A stretch of 64,000 nt of DNA. Source: Candidatus Cloacimonadales bacterium (lineage in GTDB: Bacteria > Cloacimonadota > Cloacimonadia > Cloacimonadales > JAIOQZ01). A model generated the notes under the pieces. It was given only the letters and a program-made list of their open reading frames with translations. It ran no database searches and had not been told where the DNA came from. The position numbers and the translations under genes were made by a program. The stretch is from NCBI GenBank assembly GCA_963662655.2, contig CAXXTU010000002.1, forward strand, positions 1,600,001-1,664,000, in the 5' to 3' direction. Below are positions 8,156-46,741 of the stretch, in pieces (position 1 is the stretch's first letter; each line of letters begins with the position of its first letter).

Positions 8156-8289
8156 GGCGCGAGCGGATTTGTTCGATCTCCCTTTTCGCCGTGGTGTTTC
8201 ACGACGGAGTAGTTCTTCATATCATTTTTTGTTTACGGAGTCGTGGTATATCCACGGCGAAAAGGGAGATCGGGCAAAGATGCCGCGCC
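8156..8289 (+). repeat. Family-1 structured hairpin element, copy A
   Basis: GGCGCG-A-GC-GGA-TTTGTTCGAT-CTCCCTTTTCGCC-GTGG-TGTTT-CACGAC...GTCGTG-GTATAT-CCAC-GGCGAAAAGGGAG-ATCGGGCAAA-GAT-GC-CGCGCC. Confidence 0.9.
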
Positions 8290-8445
8290 GGTCGGACACA
8301 GCAAGTAACATAGCTCGCTCTTCTCCCCGTCCTGCTAATCTCGCTAATCCCGTAAATTCTGATTCAAACAATCTCTCCTCGAAACAGAGTAGCGCCTATT
8401 ACGTTTACCCGTTATACTATATTGATATTCACAGGAATCAATAGA

Positions 8446-9177
8446 ATGAAGCACACATTGTATCTATTCACATTATCACTTCTCTCATTCTCGTTTCTCG
8501 CCGGAGAAACGACAGATCGGGATTCGACCAAATCAAGTAACTTCCTGCAAAGCTACGAGGCAACGTACATCATTCCGCTGGCTCTGATTGGCTATGGATT
8601 TATCGCTGTCGAGAGTGAGCAACTGAAGTTTTACAACTACGAGACACGTGAAGAGTTGCAGGAGAACATCGATAGAAAGTTCACCATCGACGATGTATCG
8701 CAGTACGTACCCTTTCTCTCGGTCTACGCGCTGAACGCAATAGGAATCGAGGGGAAAAACCGCTTCAAGAAACGAACCTGCGTCCTCGGCACAGCCTACG
8801 CCATGATGGGCGCAACCGTCCTCAGTCTCAAGAAAATGACCAGCGTCAAGCGGCCCGACGGCTCCTCGCGAAATTCATTTCCATCAGGACACACGGCAAC
8901 CGCTTTCATGGGGGCGGAGTTCGTCTATCAGGAGTACAAAGACGAATCCATCTGGTACGGTGTCTCCGCCTACTTGATTGCTGCGGGAACCGGATTCTTC
9001 AGAATGTACAACAACCGTCATTGGCTTTCGGATGTCTCTGCGGGGGCCGGTATCGGTATGATCTGCACCAAGCTCGCTTACTTGATACACGATGAGATGA
9101 AACTCAGCTCGTACTGCATGGTTGTGCCATACTATGATGCCCGGCACCTGGGCTTCGCGTTCAATATCGGGTATTGA
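8446..9177 (+). CDS. PAP2-family phosphatase
   Basis: KRPDG..SFPSGHTA..RMYNNRHWLSDV motifs; N-terminal signal peptide. Confidence 0.88.
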   Translation: MKHTLYLFTLSLLSFSFLAGETTDRDSTKSSNFLQSYEATYIIPLALIGYGFIAVESEQLKFYNYETREELQENIDRKFTIDDVSQYVPFLSVYALNAIGIEGKNRFKKRTCVLGTAYAMMGATVLSLKKMTSVKRPDGSSRNSFPSGHTATAFMGAEFVYQEYKDESIWYGVSAYLIAAGTGFFRMYNNRHWLSDVSAGAGIGMICTKLAYLIHDEMKLSSYCMVVPYYDARHLGFAFNIGY

Positions 9178-9184
9178 CTTTCTG

Positions 9185-9213
9185 CCTGGGTACGCGGACG
9201 TCCAAGTCTGCAT
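9185..9213 (+). repeat. REP-like palindromic repeat, left copy
   Basis: CCTGGGTACGCGGACGTCCAAGTCTGCAT; 25/29 identical to reverse complement of 9979-10007. Confidence 0.75.
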
Positions 9214-9243
9214 CACTCGGATCGCCAAGCCTTTGTTTGATAA

Positions 9244-9873
9244 TCACTTATTGCTATTACTTTTGCTCTTCTTTGTTTCTGCGGTGTTAGGGAGGGTGAT
9301 TTGCTGAGAGATGTTGAGTTTGCTGATGGTATCGATTATAGTCTTTATATCTTTCTCGATGCTCTTTACTTTAGTAAATACATCGTCTTCTAGCTTTGGA
9401 TGGCGGACTTGATAAACTTGAGTCGCATCTTTGAATGCACCAGATTGTTTGTTAGAACCAGGATTCACTACAGCAATAATAATTGCTTCAAGTTGAGTAA
9501 GGGCTAGATGTGCATCTACATTGTCAATTTCATCCTCATTGGACTTACGCCCAAACCATGAGAATGAGTCCCAGCTATTCGCTAACGGTCCTGTTTTATG
9601 TGATCTCAGTCTCTTAAATATTGTTTGCTTTGTTTTCTTTCCGTTCCACTCTTTTACACCAGCTTGTCCTGCATAAATCAGTTCTCCATCCCGGAATAGA
9701 CAATAGACTCCGATATAATCTCCAAAATTTTCAGGAGTATTCTGCTCATTAATTCTTGGAGCGCCTGGGGTATCGAGTACTGCGCTGGTTTTTCCTAACA
9801 TTGCACCTGAATTTTTCTGCCGTCCCCAGAAAACATCTTTCTCTGACCAGAATAGCCCATAATGTGTAATCAT
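9244..9873 (-). CDS. GIY-YIG-like nuclease (visibly AT-rich gene)
   Basis: GVYCLF...IYAGQAG...IFKRLRSH...LEA...N matches the GIY-YIG/Arg/Glu/Asn layout. Confidence 0.7.
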   Translation of the reverse strand: MITHYGLFWSEKDVFWGRQKNSGAMLGKTSAVLDTPGAPRINEQNTPENFGDYIGVYCLFRDGELIYAGQAGVKEWNGKKTKQTIFKRLRSHKTGPLANSWDSFSWFGRKSNEDEIDNVDAHLALTQLEAIIIAVVNPGSNKQSGAFKDATQVYQVRHPKLEDDVFTKVKSIEKDIKTIIDTISKLNISQQITLPNTAETKKSKSNSNK

Positions 9874-9978
9874 GATGTGCTCCTTTTAGTTTGATAAATG
9901 TATATGTGAATGAATTACCATGATTGTCAATCGAAATATAATTCTATTCATTGAAGCAAACATAGCGAGGCATTGAAA

Positions 9979-10007
9979 ATGCGGACGAGGACGTCCGCGT
10001 TCCCAGG
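9979..10007 (-). repeat. REP-like palindromic repeat, right copy
   Basis: Minus strand CCTGGGAAC-GCGGAC-GTCCTC-GTCCGC-AT hairpin. Confidence 0.75.
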
Positions 10008-10014
10008 GGGATAG

Positions 10015-10047
10015 AAAAAGCCCCCGCTTCGTTTGAAGAGGGGGCTT
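10015..10047 (-). terminator. Intrinsic terminator after rnfB
   Basis: AAGCCCCC.CTTC/GAAG.GGGGGCTT stem followed by T-run on minus strand. Confidence 0.7.
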
Positions 10048-10062
10048 GTGGGAGGTTTATCC

Positions 10063-10956
10063 TTAAGCTTCTTGTTTCTGTTTTTCTTCCAGCGCTTTCT
10101 TGGCTGCCTCTGCCTTGGCCTTGGCCGCAGCTTTCTTCTCGGCACGGATTTCCTTGAGCGGATCGAAGATCGCCCCCGTCGGGCAAACATCCGCGCACAT
10201 ACCGCAGTTGATACACTTGTCGTAGTCGATAACGGCCACATTGTCCACGATGGTAATCGCTTCCTTCGGGCACTTCTTCACGCAGAGCGAACAGCCGATA
10301 CATGCGGTGCCGTTACCGCAGTTCTTCTTCGCCACCGCGCCTTTATCGTGCGACATACACAGCACGTGAACACGCTTCTTCTTGTCGACCAGCTCGATCA
10401 GGTTGCGCGGGCAAGCTTTGACGCAAGCGCCGCAGCCGGTACACTTATCCTTGTCGATAACGCGCATTCCGTTCTCGTCCAGTGAGATCGCGTCGAAGAG
10501 ACATGCCTCGATACAATCGTTCTGGAAGACGCAGCCGAAATCGCAAAGATTCGGGCCGTTCGAGAGCGCGATAGCTGCTTTACAGGTCTTGATGCCTTCG
10601 TATTCGTAGCGGAAGAACGTGTTGTTCTTGCCGCCGCTCTGGCAGTGGATCACCGCAATCTTGGGATCGGCAGCGTCGGCTGTCATTCCCATAATCTGAG
10701 CGATTTTCTCCACCACGTCAGCTCCGCCCGGCGCACACCGATTGATCGCGACACCTTCGCTCACGATCGCTTCGGCGTACCCACCGCAGCCGGGAAGGCC
10801 GCAAGCGCCGCAGTTCGCGCCCGGAAGCGCTTCATTGATTTGTTCGATTTTCGGATCCACTTCAACGTGAAACACACGTGAAGCAAACGCCAGGACCAAT
10901 CCGAAGATCAGACCCAGGCCACCGATGATTGCGATTGGAATGAGTATCATTATCAT
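10063..10956 (-). CDS. rnfB: Rnf complex subunit B (polyferredoxin)
   Basis: [14 protein letters not shown] plus several CxxCxxCxxxCP motifs. Confidence 0.93.
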
Positions 10957-10974
10957 ATCTTCACCTCATTTCCA

Positions 10975-11562
10975 TCAGATTTTGAATCCGGCAAATCCGC
11001 CGAACGCCAGCGCCATACAGCCGGCAACGATCAATGCGATCGGCATTCCCTTCATCGCCACAGGCACTTCCGCCTGCTCCAGGCGTTCGCGAATACCCGC
11101 CATCAGAACCAGCACGAGCGTGAAGCCCACACCCGAGAAGAATCCGTTCATGACGGAACCGATAAATGTATATTCTTCCGTGATATTCAGAATGGACACA
11201 CCCAGCACGGCACAGTTTGTCGTGATGAGCGGAAGGAACACGCCCAGCGATTTGTAAAGCGCCGGCGCGACTTTCTGAATCACCATTTCCACAAACTGAA
11301 CCAGCGCCGCGATCGTGAGGATAAATGCGATGGTCTGCAAATACCCGAGATTGTTCGGCACCAGCAGGTAATACTGAATCAGCCAGGTGATTGTCGATGC
11401 GAGCGTCATGACGAAGATCACCGCCATGCCCATTCCGATCGCCGAATCCAGCTTCTTCGACACGCCGATGTAGGGACAGAGTCCCAAAAAGCGTGCCAGC
11501 ACAAAGTTGCTGACGAAGATCGACATGATCGCCAATGTAAACATACTTCCAATAAATTGCAT
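10975..11562 (-). CDS. rnfA: Rnf complex subunit A
   Basis: [24 protein letters not shown]. Confidence 0.93.
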
Positions 11563-11591
11563 GCGTTACTCCTTGTTTATCCGAAGTTCGC

Positions 11592-12188
11592 TCAATGCTT
11601 CTTCTTGAAGATTTCCATCAAGCCCATCAAAAGACCGAGCGTGAGGAATGCACCCGGAGCCAGAATCGCGGCAAGCATCGGCAGGCTGCGATAAGCTTCG
11701 GTAAGAACGTTCATACCGAGGAATTGGCCGGCGCCAAGGACTTCGCGGATTCCACCCAGCACCACAAGCGCCAGGGTGAATCCCAATCCCATGCCGATAC
11801 CGTCGAACATCGATTTGAGGACATTGTTCTTACTTGCGAACGCCTCCGCGCGACCGAGGATGATACAGTTCACCACAATCAGCGGAATGAACAGCCCCAA
11901 GCTCTTGTGCAGAGCCGGAACATACGCGTGCATCGCCATATCGACGATGGTCACGAAGGACGCGATCACCACGATGTAACAGGGGATACGAATCTTGCTC
12001 GGAATCAGATTCTTGATCAACGATATGATAATGTTCGAACAAACAAGCACGAACGTCGCCGCCAGCCCCATGCCAATCGCGTTGGCCACCGAGGTGGTAA
12101 CGGCGAGGGTCGGGCACATGCCAAGCGCCATCACGAATACGGGGTTTTCCTTGATGAAACCTTTTGTCATTTCTTTCATCGCGCTCAT
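11592..12188 (-). CDS. rnfE: Rnf complex subunit E
   Basis: ENPVFVMALGMCPTLAVT, IPLIVVNCIILGRAEAFA. Confidence 0.93.
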   Translation of the reverse strand: MSAMKEMTKGFIKENPVFVMALGMCPTLAVTTSVANAIGMGLAATFVLVCSNIIISLIKNLIPSKIRIPCYIVVIASFVTIVDMAMHAYVPALHKSLGLFIPLIVVNCIILGRAEAFASKNNVLKSMFDGIGMGLGFTLALVVLGGIREVLGAGQFLGMNVLTEAYRSLPMLAAILAPGAFLTLGLLMGLMEIFKKKH

Positions 12189-12796
12189 GATTGTGCTCCT
12201 TCGGTAGCGGTTTTCAGGTACTCGATACCCAGCTTGATGGAGTTTGTCACTGCGCGGGACGTGATGGTCGCACCGGTGATACTGGTCACCTTGCCGCCAT
12301 CTTTATCTACCGCGAGGGTCGCAGGGGTCTGCCCCGCGAACTGCGACATGAAGTTATCCGAGGTACAGTTTGCACCAAGACCTGGAGTCTCCGACTGATA
12401 GGTGATCTTGATCTTATTGACCTCGAAATCACCCGCCGGATTGAGCTTCACGCCCACCATGGTCTGCACGGTACTGCTGTAGCCCTTTCCAAAGGCTTTG
12501 AATACGTAACCGACGGCGTTGCCTTCGGCGTCCATCGCCTTGTAATAATAGAACATGCCGCCTGCTCCACCCGCGCTCAGCTTGAGCGGGTCTTCCTCCA
12601 CCGCAACTTCCACTGCGAGGGAGTCCAGCACGAACTGGCTGGCGTCCGGCAATACTTCCATGCGCGCGCTGCTCTCTTCGAGCTCCGCGTTTTTCTGTAT
12701 GATCGGCTCGGTCTTGCCGTTGACAAACGCCAGAATACCGCTGGCGATGCCGGAGATGACCAGGAGCACGAGTCCGAGTTTTATGTAGTACATCAT
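12185..12796 (-). CDS. rnfG: Rnf complex subunit G
   Basis: N-terminal TM, ETPGLG, ITGATITSRAV FMN-attachment motif; ATG overlaps rnfD stop. Confidence 0.9.
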   Translation of the reverse strand: MMYYIKLGLVLLVISGIASGILAFVNGKTEPIIQKNAELEESSARMEVLPDASQFVLDSLAVEVAVEEDPLKLSAGGAGGMFYYYKAMDAEGNAVGYVFKAFGKGYSSTVQTMVGVKLNPAGDFEVNKIKITYQSETPGLGANCTSDNFMSQFAGQTPATLAVDKDGGKVTSITGATITSRAVTNSIKLGIEYLKTATEGAQS

Positions 12797-13872
12797 TTTT
12801 TCACCTCCCCGAACGCTTTGGGAACGGTGTAGCGATCGATGAGCGGCACCGCGATGTTCATCAGCAGGATGGAGTAGGAAACACCTTCGGGGTAGCCGCC
12901 GACAAGGCGAATCACCACCGTCAGCACGCCGCAGCCGATACCGAAGATCAGTCGACCGCGCTTGGTTACCGGCGATGTCACCATGTCCGTGGCCATGAAG
13001 AACGCGCCCAGCATCAAACCACCGGAGAGGACGTGGAAAACGCCCAGGGTGTAAGGTCCGCTGGCGAATCCGTTCAGGCCGCCGAAAAGGTAGCTGAGAA
13101 CAAAGACTGTTCCGATATACGATACCGGAATGTGCCATTCGATGATATGTTTGTAAACCAGATAAGCCGCACCGATCAGAAGCGCTGCAGCAGATACTTC
13201 ACCGATCACACCGCCGATGTTGCCCCAGAATAGGTTGGAGATGGTCTCCCAGCGGGTGAGTTCGAACATCACCTTCTCGGCGATGTCGGGGCTGACCTGC
13301 GACGCGTCGCGAAGGGCCTTGATCGCTGTGAGCGGCGTCGCGCCCGTGATAGAATCGAGGTTGCCCAGGGAAGCCAGGTTTCGCAGGCTTTCCCTGCCCA
13401 ATCCACTGATGGACGGGCCGGCGATTCCGCGAATCGTGGGTGTGAATTGTGCAGTTGTAAGCGTTGGCCAGGATGCCACCAAAAATGCCCTTGCCAGAAG
13501 CGCGGGGTTGAAAGGATTGTGTCCCAGGCCACCGAATAATTGCTTGCCGATCGCGATCGCGAACACGGACCCGACTACCGGCAACCACCATGGGGAGGCA
13601 ACGTTCAGGTTGAACGAGACCAGCATGCCGGTCACCACGGCGCTACCGTCGGCAATGGATACTTCCTGCTTGCGCAGCTTCTGGATCGCGGCCTCCGTCA
13701 CCACCGCGGCGATCACGCCGTAAACGGTGAGAAGAAGCGCTTGGATCCCGAAGAAATACACACTGGCTATCAGTGCCGGTACCAGCGCGATGACAACTTT
13801 CCACATCACCGAACTGACCGAAATCCGATCGTGAAGATGAGGGGACGCCGATACTGCGTATGTGTTATTCAT
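12793..13872 (-). CDS. rnfD: Rnf complex subunit D
   Basis: KQLFGGLGHNPFNPAL, DSITGATPL FMN motif, FFMATDMVTSP. Confidence 0.93.
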   Translation of the reverse strand: MNNTYAVSASPHLHDRISVSSVMWKVVIALVPALIASVYFFGIQALLLTVYGVIAAVVTEAAIQKLRKQEVSIADGSAVVTGMLVSFNLNVASPWWLPVVGSVFAIAIGKQLFGGLGHNPFNPALLARAFLVASWPTLTTAQFTPTIRGIAGPSISGLGRESLRNLASLGNLDSITGATPLTAIKALRDASQVSPDIAEKVMFELTRWETISNLFWGNIGGVIGEVSAAALLIGAAYLVYKHIIEWHIPVSYIGTVFVLSYLFGGLNGFASGPYTLGVFHVLSGGLMLGAFFMATDMVTSPVTKRGRLIFGIGCGVLTVVIRLVGGYPEGVSYSILLMNIAVPLIDRYTVPKAFGEVKK

Positions 13873-13888
13873 AGTTCCTCCAGCGTCT

Positions 13889-15214: not shown

Positions 15215-15454
15215 ATTTACTCCTGCAGAACGTTTTCCTGAAAGCAGAAACCCGGGTCATGCCCGGTAATACGTTGTATTATAATGTGTTATGCCTGATT
15301 GTGAGATGTGACACATCTCGCGGCACTATAAAGTGTCAGTTATAAGACCCACTTTGATTTGTCAAAGGATTCTTGTTTTTTCAGAGTTTTCTTTGGGATT
15401 GTGCTGTGTCCCGTCCTGAAATAGGTTGACCGTTGGGTCGAAGGAGGCTCAGGT

Positions 15455-15862
15455 ATGGGAGAAAATGTGAAACGACGGGCGAAGCGTTGCGAGGTGAAGG
15501 CGCGTGTTCTGCATCACGTGCTGACGAGCGACTACTGCGTGGCGGAGCTCGCGGAGCAGTACGACATATCCGTTCGCACGCTGTATCGCTGGATCAAAGA
15601 GGACGCCGTGAAGCCGGCGCGACGCAAGGGAGCTCAAAAGCGAGGTCGCATGGCGAAAGAAGATTACAAGGACAAGACAATCGCGGAGCTGGAGAAGAAG
15701 GTGCAGGATTTGCAGGCTGCGTTGAGCGAGAAAGTGCTGGAGAACTGCGCGTTGCAGGCGATCGTGAACGTGACCGAGCGCAAGTACGGCATCAGCGCAA
15801 AAAAAAAGACTGGTTCGCTGTTATCACCGAATGTCGAGCTGTCGCGAAAGAAAGAGAAGTAG
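15455..15862 (+). CDS. IS3 OrfA (HTH plus coiled coil)
   Basis: VAELAEQYDISVRTLYRW helix-turn-helix followed by a leucine-zipper-like segment. Confidence 0.85.
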   Translation: MGENVKRRAKRCEVKARVLHHVLTSDYCVAELAEQYDISVRTLYRWIKEDAVKPARRKGAQKRGRMAKEDYKDKTIAELEKKVQDLQAALSEKVLENCALQAIVNVTERKYGISAKKKTGSLLSPNVELSRKKEK

Positions 15863-16680
15863 CCGCGAACATGCAGGTGATTTGCGGCTTGTTCGGTCGC
15901 AGCAAGCAGAGCTACTACCAGCACAGGAAGCGGCTCCATCGGCTCCAGGCGGAGGTGGAGGAGATCGTATCCGCCGTGCGCGAGATTCGCGTGAAACAGC
16001 CACGCGTCGGGGCGCGGAAGCTGCAATACATGCTGAAGGCGCACGGGCTCGAGGTTGGTCGCGACCGGCTGTTCGGCATCCTGCGCGACTACGGGCTGCT
16101 GTCGACGGCGTACCGCTCATACCTCCGCACGAGCCTGGGCAGCCGCAGTCGACACCCGAACCTGGTGAAGGACATCATCGCTCGCCGCGTCGGCCAGATC
16201 ATCGCGAGCGACATCACCTACATCCGGTTGCAACGCGGATTCGCCTACCTTTCGCTGACCTCGGATCAGTACTCGGACGCGATCCTGGGATATTCGCTGC
16301 AGCCCGACCTGCGCACGCATGGTCCAGCGCTCTCTCTGAAACGGGCGATGAGGTCGTTGCGCAATGCCGGAGCCGTGGATATCAAAGGCTGCATCCACCA
16401 CTTCGATCATGGTACGCAATTCACCAGCGCCTGCTTCCAGAACGCGCTGCGACGCTACTGCTATCGCACCAGCATGACCGGTCCGGGCAAGTGCTACGAC
16501 AACGCCAAGGCGGAGCGCATCAACGGGATTCTGAAGCACGAGTTGGGGCTGGAACGGAGATTCAGGGACTTCGACGACGCGCTGAAGTACGTAGAGGAAG
16601 CAGTTCGGATCTACAACGAAGAACGGCTCATCATCACGCAGGGCTACCGCACACCGAACGAGATATTGAACGCAGCGTAG
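15799..16680 (+). CDS. IS3 OrfB DDE integrase core, probably made as OrfAB via -1 frameshift
   Basis: SDITY, HHFDHGTQF, DNAKAERINGILKHE; A9G slippery run at 15799-15808. Confidence 0.88.
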   Translation, partial: KKKDWFAVITECRAVAKEREVAANMQVICGLFGRSKQSYYQHRKRLHRLQAEVEEIVSAVREIRVKQPRVGARKLQYMLKAHGLEVGRDRLFGILRDYGLLSTAYRSYLRTSLGSRSRHPNLVKDIIARRVGQIIASDITYIRLQRGFAYLSLTSDQYSDAILGYSLQPDLRTHGPALSLKRAMRSLRNAGAVDIKGCIHHFDHGTQFTSACFQNALRRYCYRTSMTGPGKCYDNAKAERINGILKHELGLERRFRDFDDALKYVEEAVRIYNEERLIITQGYRTPNEILNAA

Positions 16681-16739
16681 GAAGCAATCGAAATGAAATC
16701 AAACACGAAAAAGCTGGTCAACTATTTTAGGACGGGACA

Positions 16740-17938
16740 TCCTGGAACGTCCTGAAAAACCGCTCGACCACCTTGGCGCGCGCGTTGTAAGCCTTGGCAA
16801 ACGCCACGCCGATGCCGAGTCGCGGGAAGATACCCTCCAACTCCTTGCTGAGGTCGTGCTTCTCCCAATGCTTGTTGAACAGTTTGCTCCGGAACGCTTT
16901 GCCATTATCGAGATACACGTACTTCGGCTTGCCGCCCCAGTGCATGATCGAGTTGCGTAACGCGAGCAACACATGCTGAGAATCTTCCGAGACCGCCAAC
17001 GATGCTCCCACCGGGTAACGGGAAGCCCAGTCGAAGAACATGATCATCGTCATGCGCCTGGGCTTTCCGGTAGCCGGATCGATGATGTCGAAAGCAAGTT
17101 TATGCCCGTCGGCAACCCAGACGTCGCCGACCTCGAGTTCGTCACTGCGAAGGATGCTGAGGATGCCGGTCTCCTTCAGCGACTTCTTGCCGTTACGAAG
17201 TAAGTTCCACTCAGGCTTGTGGCTGTCGCGCCACTCCTCACACCAGCGGCGTAGCGTCCTTTCGCTCGATGGTGACTCCAGCTTCTGCAAGGTTTCCATC
17301 TGCTTCAGCTTGCGGATGGCCGACCCGATGGATATGCGATTGGGGTTGAGCAGCAGGTGCAGCAGGAAGTTCTGTTCGGTCTCTGTCGCCTTACGTGTGG
17401 CTTCCGCGACCGTGTACTTGCGGATGAGCGACCTGGCGTCTCGTCCCGCTTTGACGTAGTTCCGCACCCAACGACGCAATGTCCGCTCGCCGCGATGTCC
17501 CTCGACCACGTACAGCTCCGGCATGAAGCGTCTGTCGTTGTAAGCTTCGACGATTGTCTTCCACGCATCCGTCTTGGAGTCAGCCCGACTCAGGACTTCA
17601 AGAATGGCGTCGCAGAGCTGCGCACGCAGATGCGCCTGCTCCTGAAAATGCATGGGTTCGGTGTGCCTGGGGCGCAGGTCGGGTATCGTCTCGTCCCGTA
17701 GAGCTGGTACCGAAATCGAGACTGACTCTTCTTGTTCGTCCTCTTCTGAATCGTGTGCTGTTTCTGGCTCTGTCGGCGTCTCAGTCCTCTCATCTGGGAC
17801 AGCATACAGCTTGCGACGCCCTCCCTGCGGCAAGGTCTCGTAGCGTGACTCCCATCCCTTCTCCCGCGCTATCTTGACTGCTGTCGGACGTGATACGTTC
17901 AACATGTCCTGCAATTCCGAGCATGTCATCCAATTCAT
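16740..17938 (-). pseudogene. Mu-like DDE transposase (MuA-type), truncated at C-terminus by the IS
   Basis: N-terminal HTH, WVADGH..FFDWASRYPVG, LDNGKAF, AKVVERFF; frame runs straight into the IS right IR. Confidence 0.82.
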
Positions 17939-18171
17939 CCGATCCTCCTTCTCGCGTCTCTCGCATTTATGCTAAATGCTTCTCCTGTAATCTGACTCAA
18001 TTCCGGTTCGAGAAGTTCGAGGAATGCGTCAGCTTTTCGCATATTCTTCTCGCCCCTCATATAATATTCAAGCATCCGCATCGAAATTCCTATGGTTTCA
18101 GAAATCTCGGAAATGCTGATTCCTTTATGCTTTATGGCAGCCTTGAATTCGTTTTGCGTGTACTTTTTCAA
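17935..18171 (-). CDS. Cro/Ner-like small HTH regulator
   Basis: GISISEISETIGISMRMLEYY HTH; divergent from the repressor and coupled to the transposase start. Confidence 0.72.
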   Translation of the reverse strand: MKKYTQNEFKAAIKHKGISISEISETIGISMRMLEYYMRGEKNMRKADAFLELLEPELSQITGEAFSINARDARRRIG

Positions 18172-18314
18172 TCCCTTCTCCCTTCCGCTGAAAATTTTCC
18201 ATTGACACCGGTTCGTGTTTGTGCAATTTCGAGTTCATGCATCAATAAAGAAGAATTGCGTGCGAAATGTCAACAGATTTCTCGCATAAACTGTAAGTCA
18301 TTGCAGGAGAAAGC

Positions 18315-19058
18315 ATGGAAGTAAAAGACAGATTGGCGGCTGTAGTTAAGTCGTTAGAAATGAAAAAGATGGATTTTGCGTCGTCTATCGGCGTGTCAAC
18401 CGGAAACCTCTCGGACTGGCTCTCTGACAAGAAAAAGAGCAAACCGTCCATCGATGCGCTGGTTCGTATTTGCGAAATGCATGCCGTGAACATGAACTGG
18501 CTGCTCACAGGACAGGGCTCGATGTTCATCGAACCCTTCCCCGAAGCGTTACTCGAGACCGAGGACGGCAAGAAGAAGCGGCTCGAAATGCTCAAGCACA
18601 CGGTCAAGACCATCGATGGCAGGCCGTATAACCCGTCCGACAACTACTTCAGCCGGACGGTGAGTCTGCCGGTGGAAGCGGAGATTGCTGCGGGGCCTCC
18701 CGTCAAAGCGAAGAAAGACAGCCTCGCGTATATCGAAATCCCGCGCGTGTTCCTTTCGAGCGATACGGTGAACTACTGCGTGTTTCGAGTGAACGGTCAC
18801 AGTATGGAGCCGAACATCCATCATGGCGACATCGTGGTCATTCATTACAACTACGACTGGATGAGTCTCGATGGTAAGGTCTGCGCTGTTCGAACCGATG
18901 ATGGCATCACGCTGAAGAAGGTCCAGCTCGTACCGAAGAACAAACAGGTACTCCTCCTCCCATTCAACAAAGACTACAATGTCATCGTGCTCGACGAGGA
19001 TTCACCAATGGACGTTCACCTCGTGGGTGTGGTGGTGATTCAGTTCAGGCTATATTAG
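18315..19058 (+). CDS. CI-like phage repressor (XRE HTH plus S24 peptidase)
   Basis: FASSIGVSTGNLSDW HTH, AG cleavage site (IAAG), VNGHSMEP and TLKK catalytic motifs. Confidence 0.9.
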   Translation: MEVKDRLAAVVKSLEMKKMDFASSIGVSTGNLSDWLSDKKKSKPSIDALVRICEMHAVNMNWLLTGQGSMFIEPFPEALLETEDGKKKRLEMLKHTVKTIDGRPYNPSDNYFSRTVSLPVEAEIAAGPPVKAKKDSLAYIEIPRVFLSSDTVNYCVFRVNGHSMEPNIHHGDIVVIHYNYDWMSLDGKVCAVRTDDGITLKKVQLVPKNKQVLLLPFNKDYNVIVLDEDSPMDVHLVGVVVIQFRLY

Positions 19059-20340: not shown

Positions 20341-20559
20341 TCACGGGAGCAGATTCGTTTGATTTCCCGCGAAATTGTGGTGTTTCACACCCAATTTTCG
20401 GCTTTGGCGTAGTCGATTTTAGGTTTCGCGTAGCGATAACCTGGAATCCCAAAGACGAAATCATGAACGATGTGATTTCGTTCCTCGAAATCATGTTAGT
20501 GGATAATCGGGTGTGGTATATCCACATTTTGCGGGAAATCGGGCGAAGATGCCCCGTGA
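20341..20559 (+). repeat. Family-1 structured hairpin element, copy B (long loop)
   Basis: TCACGGG-A-GC-AGA-TTCGTTTGAT-TTCCCGCGAAATT-GTGG-TGTTT-CACACCC...GGGTGTG-GTATAT-CCAC-ATTTTGCGGGAA-ATCGGGCGAA-GAT-GC-CCCGTGA. Confidence 0.9.
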
Positions 20560-25890: not shown

Positions 25891-26071
25891 CATCGTGAGC
25901 AGGTTCGTTCGATCGCCGCCTGTGCAGGGTGTTCCACAGCCGATTTTCGGCTTTCGTGCAACGAAAACCTACTCATGAACACTGTGATTTCGTTCTCCGA
26001 AATCATGTTACTGGATAATCGGGTGTGGTATATCCCTGTGCAGGCGGCGATCGGGCGAAGATGCCACGATG
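25891..26071 (+). repeat. Family-1 structured hairpin element, copy C
   Basis: CATCGTG-A-GC-AGG-TTCGTTCGAT-CGCCGCCTGTGC-AGGG-TGTTC-CACAGCCGATT...AATCGGGTGTG-GTATAT-CCCT-GTGCAGGCGGCG-ATCGGGCGAA-GAT-GC-CACGATG. Confidence 0.9.
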
Positions 26072-39482: not shown

Positions 39483-39554
39483 CTTTGTCTCCGGCCTGCA
39501 AAGCTCCATCAAAGCCCCCCATCCCACCTTCAATCACCTGCAATATTCCATCGA

Positions 39555-39673
39555 GTGAGCAGATTCGTTCGATCCTTTTACCGCGTGGTGTTTCACGGCG
39601 GAGCTTTCAATATCCACTTCCGCTCGGAGCCGTGGTATATCCACGGGGTAAAAGGATCGGGCGAAGATGCCAC
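39555..39673 (+). repeat. Family-1 structured hairpin element, copy D
   Basis: GTG-A-GC-AGA-TTCGTTCGAT-CCTTTTACCGC-GTGG-TGTTT-CACGGC...GCCGTG-GTATAT-CCAC-GGGGTAAAAGG-ATCGGGCGAA-GAT-GC-CAC. Confidence 0.9.
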
Positions 39674-39754
39674 GAAACTGGAAAAGGGAACGAAGGCATC
39701 CTTGCCTGCATTCTCTCATCATCCCAGCCATTCTGAATATCCTGCTTCAGACAC

Positions 39755-39784
39755 AAAAAAAGGGCAATCTCGATGGATTGCCCT
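39755..39784 (-). terminator. Intrinsic terminator
   Basis: AGGGCAATC/GATTGCCCT stem plus T-run on minus strand. Confidence 0.72.
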
Positions 39785-39802
39785 AAAAGACTTCTCTTAG
39801 AA

Positions 39803-41317
39803 TTACTTGAGCAAAAGCATCTTCCCTGTTGATGCAACGCTCCCATTGCCATTCTTCTGCGAAACGCGACAGAGGTAGACGCCGGATGCCTGTGATTCAG
39901 CATTCCAGGTCACTTGATGCACGCCTTGCGTCATGTTGCCAAGCTCCCTGCGTTCCACACGTTGCCCCTTGACATTGTAAATCTCAAGCGTCACGTCGGC
40001 TTGTGCCGCCACGCTGAACCTGATCGTCGTTTGTGGATTAAATGGATTGGGATAAGCCGTAGGAGCTGAAACCATCAGATCGATGACCTCGTCATTAACT
40101 CCGGATGGGGTGATCACTTCATCGAGATTGAAAACGGTCGCCTCTTCTCCGTACGCAGGGTGACTCGCCTGTGCGGAAGCGAAACTCACTTCCCTGGTCA
40201 CGCTGTTGTAACGAATCGCATGGATGTTCGTGGAAATACCCGCCGCACCGGCCAGAAGATTCCAGCTCCTGGCATCGTTAATCACGGTCGATACTTCAAG
40301 AGAATCGACGATACCGTTGTAACGGTAGCATGTGATCGGATTGTAAAGCACGCGAAAATGGTTAGTCAACGCAAGGTTGTCGCCCTGAATAACCGTGTTG
40401 TCTTCCACGGACCGTGTCGCGACACCCATCTGATTGTTGTTTTCGATGATGATCGGAAGATCGTCGTTATCGTGCGTTACGTGAACCAGCGTTCCAACCG
40501 CGCGGTTGCGATCCTCTACGGCCTGAAGAATATCGTTGGTCGTCTGCTCGCCGTCGGCATCGTAATCGACCTTCTCGATTCCGTTGCGCAACGTGAGAAG
40601 TATCGGATAAAATCCACCGGTATCGGAACAGCTATGATTGTTGCCCATGTTAAGGAACGTGGTCAATCCGTTTTCGTTAATTGCGGAGAGTCCGCCAAAC
40701 AAACCCGGGAACGTGAAGGATATCCAGTTCTGTTCATCTTCTTCTTCCGGTTTCTGGATCAACACAACGGGATTTCTGAACAACGCCGCGTTCGTGCTCC
40801 AGTCCATGAAACGGGTGATCACGAGTCCGCCTTGCAGCGTCTCGTCGTCTTCCGTACTGGTTCCCCAGGATGAGATACTCGAACAGGCAAAGAGGTCCTC
40901 CGGTAAGCTTGCGAAATTGATGAGATCAATGAGCGCATTTGCCATCAGGACATCGTTCCCGTCGAGGTCTCTACCGAGTGCAGAGAAATAAACATCCGTT
41001 CCCGCGTCCGCAGCGCCGTCAATCATGGCCGAGGCTTCAGTGACATAGTCTTCTTCAATTACAAAAGCGTTCGTGAAGATCGAACGTGCCTGATTGTAAA
41101 CACTGGGATTTCCGTAACACGCATAATTGAACATGTAGTTCTCAAAAACGTCCATGAAAGCATCTCCAAGGAAATAACCCTGGGCATACCCACGGTCGTA
41201 GTGAGTTCCCCAAACGCGTAAGAAGGTTTTTCCATCCACTTCCCACATATCCCCATTCGCCTGAGCGAATAGTGAAAGCGTACCCACTAACAATGCTAAT
41301 AAAAGCACCTTTTTCAT
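39803..41317 (-). CDS. Secreted C45-family (Ntn) peptidase/acyltransferase with C-terminal sorting domain
   Basis: ACSSISSWG nucleophile Cys, TRFMDW, SAINENGL, TNHF; AYPNPFNPQTT...KMLLLK. Confidence 0.8.
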   Translation of the reverse strand: MKKVLLLALLVGTLSLFAQANGDMWEVDGKTFLRVWGTHYDRGYAQGYFLGDAFMDVFENYMFNYACYGNPSVYNQARSIFTNAFVIEEDYVTEASAMIDGAADAGTDVYFSALGRDLDGNDVLMANALIDLINFASLPEDLFACSSISSWGTSTEDDETLQGGLVITRFMDWSTNAALFRNPVVLIQKPEEEDEQNWISFTFPGLFGGLSAINENGLTTFLNMGNNHSCSDTGGFYPILLTLRNGIEKVDYDADGEQTTNDILQAVEDRNRAVGTLVHVTHDNDDLPIIIENNNQMGVATRSVEDNTVIQGDNLALTNHFRVLYNPITCYRYNGIVDSLEVSTVINDARSWNLLAGAAGISTNIHAIRYNSVTREVSFASAQASHPAYGEEATVFNLDEVITPSGVNDEVIDLMVSAPTAYPNPFNPQTTIRFSVAAQADVTLEIYNVKGQRVERRELGNMTQGVHQVTWNAESQASGVYLCRVSQKNGNGSVASTGKMLLLK

Positions 41318-41886
41318 GACAACTCCTTATGTACTTTATTTTTCCCCAGCTGTTGTTTGTCCATGACTCGATAATGAGGATGATAGAGGTCCCGATACCG
41401 CTGACTGTGATGAAACACAGGCTCTCCCAGCATGAAACCCTGCTCGATCTCACCCATCTGATCTTGATGGATTTCGAGTCCTTTATTGACTAATAATAAC
41501 AGGTCATAGATTTCTGTCCACATATTTCGCCATTGTGCAAGAGGAATCGTCACTTCCACTCTGGCGCTCGCAATGAACGCATCGAAAACATCGTCGAAGT
41601 TCAAGAGACCCTGATGAATCGCGTGAAGGTTTATCCTGCAATACGTTCCATGCCATCCGATGTCTTCGACAAAAGGAACTTCCCGCGTGCGTTCTTCTAA
41701 ACTCATATTATCCAGCTCTCTCTGCATATACTTTCGTGCAGAATCGATATCCTCGATGAGATGCGCCGGACCGTAGATTCCCTGGAAGAACATCTTGTAG
41801 TAGTCTATCAGCTCCGTATTGGGACGCAACGTCATCTCGTGCTGGATGAGTCGTAAAACTTTTTCTTCATCGAATAGCGTTATCAT
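41314..41886 (-). CDS. Conserved hypothetical protein
   Basis: Tightly coupled operon ORF; DYYK..FQG.YGPAHL and HHSQRYR..YHPHYRV look like conserved motifs. Confidence 0.7.
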   Translation of the reverse strand: MITLFDEEKVLRLIQHEMTLRPNTELIDYYKMFFQGIYGPAHLIEDIDSARKYMQRELDNMSLEERTREVPFVEDIGWHGTYCRINLHAIHQGLLNFDDVFDAFIASARVEVTIPLAQWRNMWTEIYDLLLLVNKGLEIHQDQMGEIEQGFMLGEPVFHHSQRYRDLYHPHYRVMDKQQLGKNKVHKELS

Positions 41887-43385
41887 CAGTCGTTATTGCT
41901 GTATACGATCTCGCTACGTTTGATAACCTGTAAGACATCGATCGAACTGATATCGATCGAGCCCTCGATCGCTTCGCCCAGGCACACCATGTCGACCTGC
42001 ATTCCGGCCTTCAGCATTCCCAACCGCTGATCCTCACCGATCATCTTCGCCGGATTGACGGTGAACAGCCGAACGGCCTCTTCAGCGCTCAAACGCTCAT
42101 CGGGATTGTTATGATGGATTGCGGAGTGGATTCCTCTGAGCATGTTCAGCTCGGTGATGTACCAGTCCGTAGAACCTGCCACAAGGATGCCGCGATCCAC
42201 CATCGATTTCAGCCGGTTGGTTCGCTTCGTCCGTACCTCACCAAGCACCTCTTCGTAGAGCTGATCCTTGCCGCCCCATAAGTGATCGAACACGGGCTGC
42301 ATGGCCGCGTGAATTCCGTACTCGGCCATGTCGTCCAGCATTCTGTCGCTGGTCAGCTCGCAGTGAATGATTGTGTGATGCAGCTCGTTCGCACGCGTCT
42401 TGCCCAGCATTTTCACCGCGTCCACAATCTGCTGAATGGCCGCGTCGCCAATCGCGTGGACGAACACCTGAAGATTGTTCTCGCTGGCTTCCCGATAGAA
42501 CGCCTGCCAGAATGTATCGGAGCGGTACAGCGTTCCGCGTTTCCCCGCTTGGTCAGCATACGGCTTCTTCAATCCCGCCGTATGAGAGCCGAAAGACCCG
42601 TCCACCAAGATGCAGCCTCCGATCCTCTTCGAACCCAATTCCACCGCCTTCTCGATATCGAACATCTGTGGGTACAGAATGAACTCGACCGGGAAGTCTT
42701 GCACATGAGAAGCGAGCAGGCTGTAATGAAGCGGATCCTGAAAACTGTCTCCGACCATCGTGTGAATCGATGTGCAGCCGGCCTTCAGAGCAATCTGCGA
42801 GGCTTGTTGATATGCGCGTAGAATGCCTTCCTCGTCCAAGTTTCGATGAAACCAGTGCGCCGCGAGGTCGTTCCAGTGCTTGCGAACGGGATTCTGCCAC
42901 TCTTCCGGCAGCTTTCCGCGCCATTCGATGCGCTCGAACGCGAGCGTATTGAGCGCACAGGAGTGCCCGTCGACACGCCGTAGCAAGATGGAATAATCCC
43001 TGGAAACGCGATCCAGCTCTTCAACCGCAGGGAATCGCTTCTCGGCGATCGAATTCTCGTCAAAGCCGGAGGCGAAGATCATACCGCTGACGGGCTTTGT
43101 CTCTGTAAGTAGCTGCAACACCTCATCCAGCGATGTCGCGTTGCTCAAATCAGCGCCGAGGCTATAAAGCCCGCCCTCGAACGAGTGCGTATGCGCATCC
43201 GTGAAACCGGGATAGACATGCGCTTTCGCGAGGTCAACCCATTGTGCGTCCTGGATGTCGGATTCCTGTGGAATTTCCTCGAGAATGTCGAGGATCGTGC
43301 CATTCTCCGTAAGGATGGCTTTCGCTACGGGCCTTGCCTCATCAAGCGTGTGGAAGGTAGCGTTATGGTATACTATTTTACTCAT
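41886..43385 (-). CDS. Amidohydrolase 3 (YtcJ-like)
   Basis: PGFTDAHTH, DGH, VDGSFGSHTA, HAIGD, GSTDW. Confidence 0.88.
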   Translation of the reverse strand: MSKIVYHNATFHTLDEARPVAKAILTENGTILDILEEIPQESDIQDAQWVDLAKAHVYPGFTDAHTHSFEGGLYSLGADLSNATSLDEVLQLLTETKPVSGMIFASGFDENSIAEKRFPAVEELDRVSRDYSILLRRVDGHSCALNTLAFERIEWRGKLPEEWQNPVRKHWNDLAAHWFHRNLDEEGILRAYQQASQIALKAGCTSIHTMVGDSFQDPLHYSLLASHVQDFPVEFILYPQMFDIEKAVELGSKRIGGCILVDGSFGSHTAGLKKPYADQAGKRGTLYRSDTFWQAFYREASENNLQVFVHAIGDAAIQQIVDAVKMLGKTRANELHHTIIHCELTSDRMLDDMAEYGIHAAMQPVFDHLWGGKDQLYEEVLGEVRTKRTNRLKSMVDRGILVAGSTDWYITELNMLRGIHSAIHHNNPDERLSAEEAVRLFTVNPAKMIGEDQRLGMLKAGMQVDMVCLGEAIEGSIDISSIDVLQVIKRSEIVYSNND

Positions 43386-43972
43386 TTGTGTGGCTCCAGC
43401 AATCGGTGCAGCATATCCTGAAACAGGCGTACGGGAAATCCCATCACGTTGAAATAGCAGCCATTCACCTTATCGATAAACTGGCTTCCATATCCCTGAA
43501 TGCCGTATGCTCCGGCTTTGTCGAACGGTTCTCCCGTTTTCAAATATTGATGTATTTCTTCTTCGCTCAATTCCTTGAACGTAACCTGCGTTTTCTCGCA
43601 ATCGTAGACTTCGCTCGCTCCGCGGATCACGCAAACGCCGGTGTATACCGAATGCGTCTTTCCCGAGAGTCGTTTCAGGTAATCGATCGCGTTTTTACTT
43701 GAACCAGGCTTCCCTAGTATCTCGCCGCCCAGATAGACGATGGTGTCCGATCCCACAACGATGCAATCGGGATCCATATTCTTCGCAACAACGGCAGCTT
43801 TCTCCCGTGCGTGGCCGATTGCCGACTTCCGGGGATGCTTGTAAACAATTGTCTCATCGATATGCGCCGGCTGGATCAGCGCTGTCACGCCGATCATTTC
43901 GAAGATCGACTTTCTGCGCGGAGACGCCGAGGCAAGCACGATCTTGTGATTTTCCAGTAGTTTGTGTATCAT
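43382..43972 (-). CDS. maf: Maf nucleotide pyrophosphatase
   Basis: LASASPRR, DTIV, LGKP, DKAGAYGIQG. Confidence 0.93.
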   Translation of the reverse strand: MIHKLLENHKIVLASASPRRKSIFEMIGVTALIQPAHIDETIVYKHPRKSAIGHAREKAAVVAKNMDPDCIVVGSDTIVYLGGEILGKPGSSKNAIDYLKRLSGKTHSVYTGVCVIRGASEVYDCEKTQVTFKELSEEEIHQYLKTGEPFDKAGAYGIQGYGSQFIDKVNGCYFNVMGFPVRLFQDMLHRLLEPHK

Positions 43973-43973
43973 A

Positions 43974-45272
43974 TTACAGTTTTAAGAGCTTGGCAAGCTT
44001 GTCCTTTACAATGTTGAGATTGATGAATTTTTGTTCGCGTACCGAAATGATGATCAGCACGATGCCGACGGCCCCGAGCACAACGTTGGCGATCCACATG
44101 GAGACCATCGGAGAAACGAAGCCGCGATCAGAAAGCTCCTCACCGCCAATGAGGGCAATGTAGTAGACCAGGAACACGAAGGAGCTGACGGAGAAAGACA
44201 TCCCCACGCCGCTCGTGCGGGTCATCATGCCAACCGGAGCTCCGACGAGCACGAAGATCAGACACGCGAACGCGATGGCGTATTTCTTGTGAATCTCCAC
44301 CTGATAGATGCGGATATCCTTCTTCATGTCCTCGATCTTGTTGAGCTTGATGTTGATCATGTTACGGGTTTTCTTCAGTTCTTTCTGGTTCGCACCTGTA
44401 CGTTCGGTGTCTTCGAGCGAGTTCGCACGGTCATTGAGGGATACAAGCTCTTCCTGGGTGTCGAAAATCTCCCGCTCCCACTGCACGATCAGCTTCTTCA
44501 TATCTTTCGTGCTGAGTTCGCGATCTCCCCGCATGTCGGTGCTGAGTTCCTCTTGGGAGAAGCCCAGATCGGGGATGTTGAGCACGAATCGTTTGAAGGT
44601 CCGAACCTCGTAGCGATCCGTATCGGTGGCGTCTATGACGTGCATCTCTCCGTTATACAGAGTGGCTTTCAGGCTATTGCCGCCATTGGTGAGGACGATC
44701 TGTCCGCGTTCTGCGGTGATGGTCTGCGGGAACTTCCTCTCTTCCTGATTGTATATGAGGATGCCGTGCATCTCTTCGCCAACATGCTCTTTGACGTATA
44801 TCGTGTAATTCTTCAGCTCGGTGAACACGCCGGGTTTAAGCTCGGATATGGGGCGTCTTGATCTCGCTTTGATGTACATCTTGCTGAGCTCGTGATTGGC
44901 CTCCGGTAGTACACGATCATTGAAGAATACCATGAAAATCGAGAGCAGCAACGCTGCGATAACCGTTGGCCTTAAAAGCGTATAGATATTGATCCCGCAT
45001 GACTTGAAGGCTACGAGTTCGTTATCCGTCGACAGCCGCCCGAACGACATGATCGACGCCGTCAACACCGACATCGGCACCGACAGCGCCATGATAAAGG
45101 GCAGACTCAGCGTGAATATCCATCCGACCGTAAGCAATCCCAAGTGCTTATCGATGATAAGATTGAGAAGATCGATCAGGTGATCGAGCAGCAACAGAAA
45201 TGTGATCACCAGAAGCGAAACCAGAAATGGTTTCAGATTTTCTTTTAAAATATATTTTTCCAGAATTTTCAT
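43974..45272 (-). CDS. LptF/LptG-family LPS export permease
   Basis: FGRLSTDNELVAFKSCG, EIHKKYAIAFAC; 3+3 TM layout. Confidence 0.87.
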   Translation of the reverse strand: MKILEKYILKENLKPFLVSLLVITFLLLLDHLIDLLNLIIDKHLGLLTVGWIFTLSLPFIMALSVPMSVLTASIMSFGRLSTDNELVAFKSCGINIYTLLRPTVIAALLLSIFMVFFNDRVLPEANHELSKMYIKARSRRPISELKPGVFTELKNYTIYVKEHVGEEMHGILIYNQEERKFPQTITAERGQIVLTNGGNSLKATLYNGEMHVIDATDTDRYEVRTFKRFVLNIPDLGFSQEELSTDMRGDRELSTKDMKKLIVQWEREIFDTQEELVSLNDRANSLEDTERTGANQKELKKTRNMINIKLNKIEDMKKDIRIYQVEIHKKYAIAFACLIFVLVGAPVGMMTRTSGVGMSFSVSSFVFLVYYIALIGGEELSDRGFVSPMVSMWIANVVLGAVGIVLIIISVREQKFINLNIVKDKLAKLLKL

Positions 45273-45501
45273 TATTATCTTACGTTTCCTTCTTACAGCC
45301 TGTTTACTGCACACGGCAATCGGCGTCAATAAAAAATGCGATTCAACCGGATCATGAAAGACACCAATGAGATGAACACATCGGATTCAGACATACGATT
45401 GGATATTCCCGAATCTTTCAGATAATTGGGAACATTTTATGCATGACATTGTTATGTTAGTGGTTCACAGAGAGTGTTAATACTGGAATGGAATAGTACA
45501 T

Positions 45502-46470
45502 ATGAAGAAAACACACAAGGGTTCGAGCATCCATATCTGGATGCAATACAACCCCGAAATCACATTGGAAGAATGGGACGCGCGTTTTCATCGCTTGAAA
45601 AACCTGAGGATTCAACGCGTGTTTATGTCGGGAACTTTTGGTAAGGATATTTTAAATTTAGCAAATAATTATCACATAGAGTTACACGCCTGGATACATA
45701 TTGTAAAAAATAGCGACACACATCTGATTAATTATCATAAAGATTGGTTCATGGTCAACCGGAACAGGGCATCCTCTGCCGGGCACTCCAACTGGCTTTG
45801 CATGAACAACCCCGTCGCCCTCGACTTCGTTCTGAAGAATATCGAAATGCTTTGCATGAACAGGCAGATCGACGGGATCCACATGGATTCCATCCGCTAC
45901 CCGCAGGTCGTTCAGCTGGATCAGCCACTCCTGGAATCAGAGTACCCCAATCATGCCGATACCGATGAGACGGATCACTGCTACTGCTCCTTCTGTCGCG
46001 AAAAGTTCAAGAGGAAGCACGGCGTCGATCCAATCGATCTGGCGGACCCGGACACCAACGAGAAGTGGCGAAATTTTCGCATCGAGACTATCAACAAAGT
46101 GGTCAGGCAGATTACGAACATCGCTCGTAAGTACCGTAAGTTCATCTCGGCAATGGTTTACCCGACTCCTGAGATCGCGCACAACGTTGCTTTCCAGGAG
46201 TGGGAGAAGTGGGACATCGACGCTATCTATCCGGCGTTGTTCAACGACCTCTTTCTCGAGGGAAGCCAGTGGCTTTCCCGCTGCATCCACGAAGGCATCG
46301 AGGCGGCCAACATACCCCTTTACGCAGGACTGCACTTACCGTCTTTCTCGGCTGAAATGCTCGATATCGCCCTCGATGCAGTGTGGGAGGCATCAGGAAG
46401 CGCGCTCTTCGCGTTCGAGAACCTCCGCCACGAGCATGACGACGTCTTGAGAAGAAGAAGATTTATGTGA
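45502..46470 (+). CDS. Glycoside-hydrolase-like TIM barrel (GHL10/DUF187 type)
   Basis: ELHAW, DGIHMDSIRYP, CYCSFCREKF, QEW..W. Confidence 0.7.
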   Translation: MKKTHKGSSIHIWMQYNPEITLEEWDARFHRLKNLRIQRVFMSGTFGKDILNLANNYHIELHAWIHIVKNSDTHLINYHKDWFMVNRNRASSAGHSNWLCMNNPVALDFVLKNIEMLCMNRQIDGIHMDSIRYPQVVQLDQPLLESEYPNHADTDETDHCYCSFCREKFKRKHGVDPIDLADPDTNEKWRNFRIETINKVVRQITNIARKYRKFISAMVYPTPEIAHNVAFQEWEKWDIDAIYPALFNDLFLEGSQWLSRCIHEGIEAANIPLYAGLHLPSFSAEMLDIALDAVWEASGSALFAFENLRHEHDDVLRRRRFM

Positions 46471-46612
46471 TTCTCCGACCGAAATGCGCTCGGGAGAGAA
46501 GCGGTCCCATCGAAGAATTGGCAGGGATTTTGCCCGGTTATTTAGCAAAATCCCTGCCATTTCTTCGATCGCCCACCCACCCATCAAACGAGCGCATTTC
46601 TCGTTAGCACTA

Positions 46613-46741
46613 GGCGGGAGCAGATTGGTTTGATGGCGCTATCCAATGTGGTGTTTCACAGTTCTGCCTCCTTACTTCTCTGATTTGCAGGACTGTGGTA
46701 TATCCACATTGGATGGCGCCATCGGGCGAAGATGCCCCGCC
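46613..46741 (+). repeat. Family-1 structured hairpin element, copy E
   Basis: GGCGGG-A-GC-AGA-TTGGTTTGAT-GGCGCTATCCAAT-GTGG-TGTTT-CACAGTTCTGC...GCAGGACTGTG-GTATAT-CCAC-ATTGGATGGCGCC-ATCGGGCGAA-GAT-GC-CCCGCC. Confidence 0.9.

Follow-up and report, generated by a model that had tools for sequence, protein, structure and literature searches.

A genus-restricted family of dispersed, fold-conserved palindromes oriented by replication in Candidatus Cloacimonadales

This report addresses a family of dispersed palindromes in the genome of a Candidatus Cloacimonadales bacterium (3.81 Mb, 51% GC; hereafter G000), five copies of which lie in the 64,000-nucleotide stretch that was analysed at the outset (C2:1600001-1664000, hereafter the window). 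The element is a palindrome of about 130 bases, and its direction in the genome follows replication, not transcription. It represents an undescribed family, restricted to one genus; its logic is known, and the family is new. By nature it is likely a selfish hairpin of single-stranded DNA (ssDNA). To the fuller reading we give an even chance, namely that of a non-autonomous selfish element which acts as a folded single DNA strand in the manner of a REPIN or an integron attC site, is moved by an ssDNA enzyme acting in trans, and has stems that are paired partly by template switching.

Copies were sought on both strands of G000 with a tolerant two-arm pattern that allows up to 4 mismatches per box, and the reversed genome served as a control. 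The search gave 109 full copies, with no arms in the control, and arm profiles add variants and fragments, for a merged total of 140 loci in which a few count for both strands. All 109 copies sit between long genes, overlap being limited to short or shadow open reading frames, and they are spread fairly evenly on the chromosome, at 3-13 loci per 200 kb. A covariance model finds the family in 4 genomes out of 101 in the order and in 3 out of a draw of 151 from the phylum, and every one of these belongs to one genus. The family is present in all four genomes of this Cloacimonadales genus and in none of the 97 other genomes of the order that were searched, by a model search that scores just 21-32 candidates per genome and that distant relatives could escape. 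Pattern matches outside the genus, at 8 genome loci and 12 metagenome loci, have no model match and were rejected as chance, and viral contigs gave no match to the element pattern. Copy density differs severalfold between species, with 9 copies in 1.2 Mb of one congener (G001) and about 37 per Mb in G000. The view taken from the window alone, that this is not a described family, agrees with the absence of any Rfam match there; nine copies give sub-threshold microRNA-hairpin scores only (37.6 against 150 bits). The full-text literature searched, with most subscription journals outside its coverage, gave no paper on Cloacimonad* together with REP or palindromic intergenic repeats. In one sample the DNA contigs match the assembly; their joints correspond to other genomic copies, and no excision of the element was seen there.

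From the outside inwards, the element consists of a 5-7 bp outer stem, an outer box, an 11-14 bp middle stem, an inner box, an inner stem and a loop. The outer stem is GGCGTG/CACGCC in G000 and CCGCNC/GYGYGG in the congeners. The outer box is GCAGATTCGTTCGAT/ATCGGGCGAAGATGC, with a tandem G.A and two T.G, and the inner box is GTGGTGTTNCAC/GTGNTATATCCAC. The sequence-only reading of the window had proposed two fixed motifs about one helical turn apart, and the spacing of 11-14 bp bears this out. Its description of both motifs as near-invariant is right for the inner core, where each of the nine positions of TGTT and TATAT is retained in 108-109 of 109 copies despite the mismatches allowed per box, and wrong for the outer motif, which varies between copies: GCGGA/GATGC with a compensatory TTTG/CAAA in Copy A, GCAGG in Copy C, and a G.G mismatch (TTGG) in Copy E. 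The supposed TGTTT/GTATAT loop is in fact a core of TGTT against TATAT plus one covarying pair, and RNA parameters pair part of this core. The left middle arm of Copy B is 13 nt (TTCCCGCGAAATT), and the outer stem of Copy D is short. The middle stems are unrelated inside the window, as described, but not genome-wide, since relatives occur elsewhere in G000 at 85-92% identity for Copies A, C and D, 77% for B and 54% for E; 100 distinct left middle arms exist among the more than 100 copies. The ends of the element are not sharp; the consensus takes about 10 nt to fade at the left end and 15-25 nt at the right. No conserved target word was found at the ends and no general target duplication, a single 7-bp direct repeat at C1:121400 apart. 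The congeners gave 80 matches, a few of which overlap. The box order is that of the window in 48 and swapped, with a left-hand TCATT partner, in 23; TCATT stands on the right in 6, and the last 3 are of other kinds.

Stabilising mismatches mark one folding strand, the + strand. Its mismatch spectrum across the genome comprises G.A 142, G.T 81 and G.G 47, against T.C 16, A.C 36 and C.C 7; G.T is thus not the main imperfection, as had been held from the window, while the choice of the + strand as the one that folds stands. A 3x3 loop of 5'GNA/5'GNA lies in the middle stem of 46 of the 109 copies on the + strand and of none on the - strand, and the + strand is the more stable in 104 of 109. Folded as DNA, Copies A, D and E reach z = -9.6, -7.3 and -8.9 on the + strand, with none of 200 shuffles equally stable, and z of -5.7 to -9.6 on the - strand. 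Both cGNAg triloops and GNA/GNA zippers have a DNA-specific stability; most triloops here belong to the cargo family described below.

The direction of the copies follows replication, not transcription. Cumulative GC skew places the origin of G000 at about C2:2.77 Mb and its terminus at about 0.81 Mb; a dif-like site was not located by a motif search. The C-rich strand was taken as the leading-strand template by the standard skew rule, in agreement with the orientation of the rRNA-linked tRNA and tuf genes, and the folding strand lies on it in 82 of 105 copies. By type of gap the ratio is 35:11 between convergent genes, 12:0 between divergent genes, 25:5 in tandem gaps on the leading strand and 10:7 in those on the lagging strand, and 32 of the 47 copies in tandem gaps have their folding strand antisense to the genes. 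The orientation shared by the five window copies is therefore real and belongs to a genome-wide polarity. Eighteen of the 23 wrong-way copies have G-rich DNA around them, which means that they did not arise by recent inversion. The 30 model matches of G001 all lie on the C-rich strand (skew sampled; 9 of 9 checked locally), and one further copy breaks the rule. Other repeats of G000 have a weaker bias or the opposite one: one set stands at 29:14 with the direction reversed, two others at 10:19 and 6:12. Among short copies, those oriented the minority way have less stable folds (-33.9 against -38.5 kcal/mol, p=0.003). That the polarity is set by replication, not by genes, speaks for DNA.

The two arms of the element change together. 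An alignment of 45 copies has 92.5% of its cells paired, and both sides have changed in 35 of the 43 pairs; none of 500 shuffles reaches this covariation, and slid controls pair at 35-46%. Because relatedness can inflate covariation, nearest neighbours were compared among the 76 of 109 copies with equal-length arms, and on their 26 edges there are 12 double Watson-Crick changes, where the null averages 0.49 and never exceeds 4 in 5000. Arms pair at 85% with their own partner and at 57% across copies, and one orthologous pair between species has changed from T-A to A-T in place. Covariation in a larger alignment, the check named by the sequence-only reading, is thus significant, and its contrast with a recently copied miniature inverted-repeat transposable element is supported. 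Its statement that selection acts on the fold survives as far as a fold-conserved family is concerned; the step from covariation to selection is weakened by two copies, at C2:2292353 and C2:2599708, in which the left outer arm has been replaced by the exact reverse complement of the right arm. Passages of PMC8794818 describe how template switching yields compensatory changes in one step. Since template switching can make paired changes without selection, covariation alone is no proof of selection, and the retained mismatches are better evidence of it.

Copies are also exchanged in parts. Middle stems are at least 90% alike in 48 pairs, with inner parts of a different type in 20 of these; outer stems too differ between otherwise near-identical copies, near-identical copies occur at distant sites, and internal deletions and box-swapped subtypes occur. 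When species are compared, some orthologous sites share the outer stem but enclose a different subtype, and others are occupied in one species and vacant in another; no insertion footprint is visible at the empty orthologous sites, their sequences being too diverged. Of 103 congener flank ends, 29 carry an element in G000 (20 in the same orientation), against a background of 11-13%. Shared sites above background, together with differing subtypes and empty sites, argue that the family is old, partly fixed and still reassorted. The paralogous 'empty site' at C1:~122060 was rejected as a pre-insertion site; both element ends remain there, which makes a deletion scar more likely (7-bp microhomology). 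No autonomous, gene-carrying copy was found among unpaired arms, closely spaced pairs or 40 congener stretches, and the genes between paired copies are ordinary, such as umuC and one for a DUF58-like protein. Three elements or arms flank and divide the umuDC-like genes at C2:832800-836500. Three of 12 checked ISL3-like copies lie within about 160 bp of an element (C2:1506285, 1950621, 3485010).

If the element is a selfish ssDNA hairpin, its two boxes would be the recognition sites of an ssDNA-cutting enzyme, most likely of the HUH tyrosine type and of the RAYT/TnpA kind, which would act in trans and which is present in three congeners and absent from G000. Such an enzyme would spread copies and use the boxes to exchange their modules (outer stem, middle stem, inner stem-loop). 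At the fork, template switching would carry a change over from one arm to its partner, leaving the stems to drift freely, and a copy without the motifs would no longer spread. Cutting or deletion may be faster for copies that expose their folding strand on the lagging-strand template, and such a purge would produce the observed polarity.

The closest comparison is with REPIN, REP and BIME sequences. Like the element, and as far as excerpts of the sources describe them, these are intergenic and multicopy, form a long ssDNA hairpin with conserved ends, a variable spacer and compensatory changes, bear mismatch bulges as recognition marks, and capture other repeats. Compensatory changes are common in REPIN hairpins according to sections of PMC3116915, which makes the logic of the element less unusual than the sequence-only reading had claimed, and mismatch bulges are required for TnpA-REP binding according to portions of PMC3479197 and PMC8266576. 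The GTAG-type tetranucleotide that REPIN/REP sequences have 5' of the palindrome has a candidate counterpart at the 5' foot of the element, GCAG in most copies (GTAG, GGAG or ACAG in others), but this one lies inside a paired stem. The element differs in several respects. The arms are not two inverted short REP palindromes; a local left-arm hairpin is possible in just 9 of 109 copies, and the arms pair over a long range. Finally, the element has two nested motifs at a fixed spacing, a strong replichore polarity and module exchange at its boxes, and no RAYT is flanked by it.

Two further systems resemble it in part. The ends of IS200/IS605 share a strand-specific imperfect hairpin and a replication-linked orientation, with transposition tied to the lagging-strand template in the portions of PMC5027513 that treat it; the element is instead one long hairpin with no separate left and right ends and no fixed tetra- or pentanucleotide target, and its folding strand lies on the leading-strand template. 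The bcr1 repeat of the Bacillus cereus group is likewise clade-restricted, about 100-155 nt long, present in tens to 130 copies, subject to compensatory changes and devoid of a known mobiliser, as parts of PMC3184786 and PMC6542083 describe it; it differs in its 5-bp direct repeats (TTTAT), its cruciform fold and its transcription, the element having no target duplication.

Repeats associated with Ssn, a small GIY-YIG nuclease, are dispersed ssDNA hairpins read by that nuclease. The small GIY-YIG was tried as a mobiliser and rejected, as the GIY-YIG genes of the genus adjoin other repeats or none of these elements. A broken small GIY-YIG (Ssn-like) gene of G000 at L002 1501-1671 (-) is flanked by TGTCATCCTGAGCG repeats, which occur at 43 loci on C2 with a bias to the G-rich strand.

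Enzymes were searched by chosen families and not by a whole-proteome scan, and none that tracks the element was found among RAYT, integron integrase, reverse transcriptase, IS110, IS91 and TnpB. IS91 was found in 0 of 8 genomes, with no control genome matching either, and TnpB in 0 of 8. IS110 occurs in one of the four genomes of the genus, not in G000; reverse transcriptases occur in three of the four, of unrelated types, and not in G001. G000 has one reverse transcriptase, at C2:981049-982608; it stands alone, is of the retron or abortive-infection kind and is interrupted by a single stop. In 17 of 18 Y1 loci of five relatives there is no significant match to the element model (L129 was left out as a second copy of the gene of L124). 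Four HUH loci have flanks that map to G000 and were compared; at two of them, C1:~121400 and C2:~3329169, the gene is missing in G000 and an element stands beside the orthologous neighbour, the RAYT and TnpA genes there being conserved in the congeners; the remaining two show no such arrangement. Missing HUH genes with adjoining elements are a hint only.

Several observations weigh against the selfish ssDNA reading. No cognate enzyme was found, and there is no sharp end, conserved target word or target duplication. Y1/RAYT genes are absent from G000, the genome with the most copies, and are present in three of three congeners and also in sister genera that lack the element; the RAYT genes of congeners have classical REPs of their own on their flanks, not the element. 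The mismatch counts are not independent, since subfamilies share ancestry, and the difference in stability by orientation is partly confounded with subfamily. The subfamily with 31-33-nt loops is nearly unbiased (21:15, against 61:8 for the others, p=0.0009) and is not younger by nearest-neighbour identity. By analogy with IS200/IS605, which uses the opposite, lagging-strand template in those portions of PMC5027513, the purge step would be needed.

An unlikely alternative is that the copies are relic palindromes without present function, left by one old expansion, that template switching and ectopic conversion now maintain the pairing of their arms and mix their modules, and that the polarity arises because stable hairpins are deleted faster where they sit in the lagging-strand template. 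The two arm-overwritten copies, the deletion derivatives and the scar with its microhomology are what such a history predicts, as are the lack of an enzyme, the one-step compensatory changes described in passages of PMC8794818 and the many positions common to the species. Template switching should, however, erase mismatches, and yet the nine unpaired or non-canonical positions are kept in nearly all copies and across species with about 76% identical orthologous proteins; near-identical copies at distant sites also speak against relics.

Somewhat less probable still, in our estimate, are dispersed attC-like sites for a tyrosine recombinase, possibly the host XerC/XerD acting on folded DNA, which would reshuffle gene blocks. 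The attC sites of sedentary chromosomal integrons place structure over sequence, have one strand that folds better and are kept on the leading-strand template, 25 of 30 showing this same polarity in sections of PMC5371416; the likeness assumes that the better-folding strand of the element is the active one. Gene order bears on this idea. It is heavily scrambled between G000 and G001, with 94 of 251 junctions broken in 400 kb, roughly one per 4 kb, which is unusual for the protein identity of the two. Over 1.2 Mb, in gaps of 100-700 nt, junctions with an element are broken in 38 of 41 cases and repeat-free ones in 129 of 234 (p=1e-6); the first 400 kb alone gave a weak breakpoint association (19/146 against 1/36). 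Some congener copies join two genes that are each flanked by an element in G000 (L202, L101), and the permuted boxes suggest that exchange takes place at the inner one. Breaks are nonetheless nearly as frequent at junctions with other repeats (51 of 60, p=0.35), and the breakpoint association is real but not specific to the element. Six tyrosine recombinases in G000 were read by eye as XerC, XerD, prophage or island types, and G001 has three; those seen in all four genomes are XerC/XerD-like alone, by size and score. No integron integrase was found among the tyrosine recombinase matches, a search that used no IntI-specific profile, and the attC core, RYYYAAC...GTTRRRY, is absent from the consensus ends on either strand. 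The copies form no cassette arrays; they are single, dispersed, of mixed orientations and beside ordinary genes. Membership among attC sites, which the sequence-only reading had suggested by likeness, is accordingly not borne out, as there is neither IntI nor attC core.

The other option raised from the window, a multicopy structured RNA, is doubtful, and slightly more so than attC-like sites. It would be a 3'-end element of mRNA (an RNase III site, or one for stability or termination) or an element spread through RNA. The + strand is far more stable as RNA (Copy E: -84.9 against -62.5 kcal/mol on the - strand), and copies are over-represented in convergent gaps (47 of 109 copies, against 202 of 1042 gaps). 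Tandem G.A, G.U and GGA/GGA loops are common RNA motifs. Against this, the orientation of copies in convergent and divergent gaps, too, goes with the replichore, tandem gaps mostly have the folding strand antisense to their genes, and a transcript of that strand would run head-on to the fork. Copies have no conserved promoter-like upstream consensus and no Rfam match, and G001 has no reverse transcriptase. A domesticated, polar site of chromosome architecture, to which a host protein would bind in its cruciform or ssDNA-hairpin form, would suit the strong polarity, the fairly even spread and the presence in every genome of the genus, and is very improbable given the severalfold differences in density, the absence from sister genera, and the gain and loss of sites.

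Turning to the window, all five copies first described are there, on the + strand, and no sixth was found. Copy A (8156..8289) has its outer box at 8163-8177/8269-8283, middle stem at 8178-8190/8256-8268, inner box at 8191-8202/8243-8255 and an inner stem-loop of 40 nt; it lies between divergent genes, one for a phosphonate ABC substrate-binding protein (-) and one with a weak LpxE/PAP2-like match (+). Copy B (20341..20559), between two - strand genes, has its outer box at 20349-20363/20538-20552, middle stem at 20364-20376/20526-20537 and inner box at 20377-20388/20513-20525; its loop (20389..20512, +) holds 124 nt of family B units, a separate REP/BIME-like repeat. Copy C (25891..26071), of the AGGG/CCCT subfamily, has its outer box at 25899-25913/26050-26064, middle stem at 25914-25925/26038-26049 and inner box at 25926-25937/26025-26037, with 87 nt of family B as loop cargo (25938..26024, +); copies with the same arms hold a 36-nt loop in place of the cargo. 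Copy D (39553..39675), between convergent genes, has its outer box at 39559-39573/39656-39670, middle stem at 39574-39584/39645-39655, inner box at 39585-39596/39632-39644 and an inner stem-loop of 35 nt. Copy E (46613..46741), upstream of gltX, has its outer box at 46620-46634/46721-46735, middle stem at 46635-46647/46708-46720, inner box at 46648-46659/46695-46707 and likewise an inner stem-loop of 35 nt; in G001, a variant in the opposite orientation follows the ortholog of the gene upstream of Copy E. Directly behind Copy D, at 39689-39712, lies a remnant of a REP of the type found with congener RAYTs (GCAGGCATCC.TGCCTGC). At 15433-19058 of the window, an IS3 copy (8 in the genome) stands beside a truncated Mu-like transposase and a repressor, and several related Mu-like prophage copies occur elsewhere in G000.

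Element loops of 55-301 nt are mostly cargo from two unrelated families of repeat, which also occur by themselves (30 matches outside elements). Family B is captured in the loops of 25 elements. Its units, TTTCGGCTTT...AAACGAAA with GNA triloops, are REP/BIME-like, form free arrays at C2:184462, 606518-606882, 772302-772611, 862999, 2346981 and 3160192, and often stand directly after the stop codon of genes with a C-terminal domain of the type IX secretion system (T9SS)/FlgD type. A third repeat family of about 120 nt has ends that resemble the inner box (GTRTTAYAC). It lies inside an element at C2:1053828 and free at C2:196485, 1181547, 1592691, 2050070, 2509229 and 2611829, it occurs in G001 as well (L218, L219), and in some copies it is located exactly at the inner box, as if integrated there.

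How REP/REPIN-type palindromes spread is still called an open question in parts of PMC8266576. The present family represents an unusually informative natural mutagenesis, in which more than 100 copies show which positions are fixed and which need only to pair; its nested modules are exchanged at two boxes, and its polarity can be read in four genomes. It is a warning, too, that a multicopy hairpin with strong covariation is not necessarily a structured RNA. A speculative idea, of low probability in our view, is chromosome-wide shuffling without arrays, in which two-motif ssDNA hairpins would be read by an unrecognised class of enzyme or a co-opted host recombinase; if true, modules would be exchanged, repeats captured, and joints created for the scrambled gene order of the genus. 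The element offers a ready substrate and a few candidate enzymes with which to ask whether such elements are maintained by an HUH enzyme acting in trans, by a recombinase of the host or by nothing more than replication errors.

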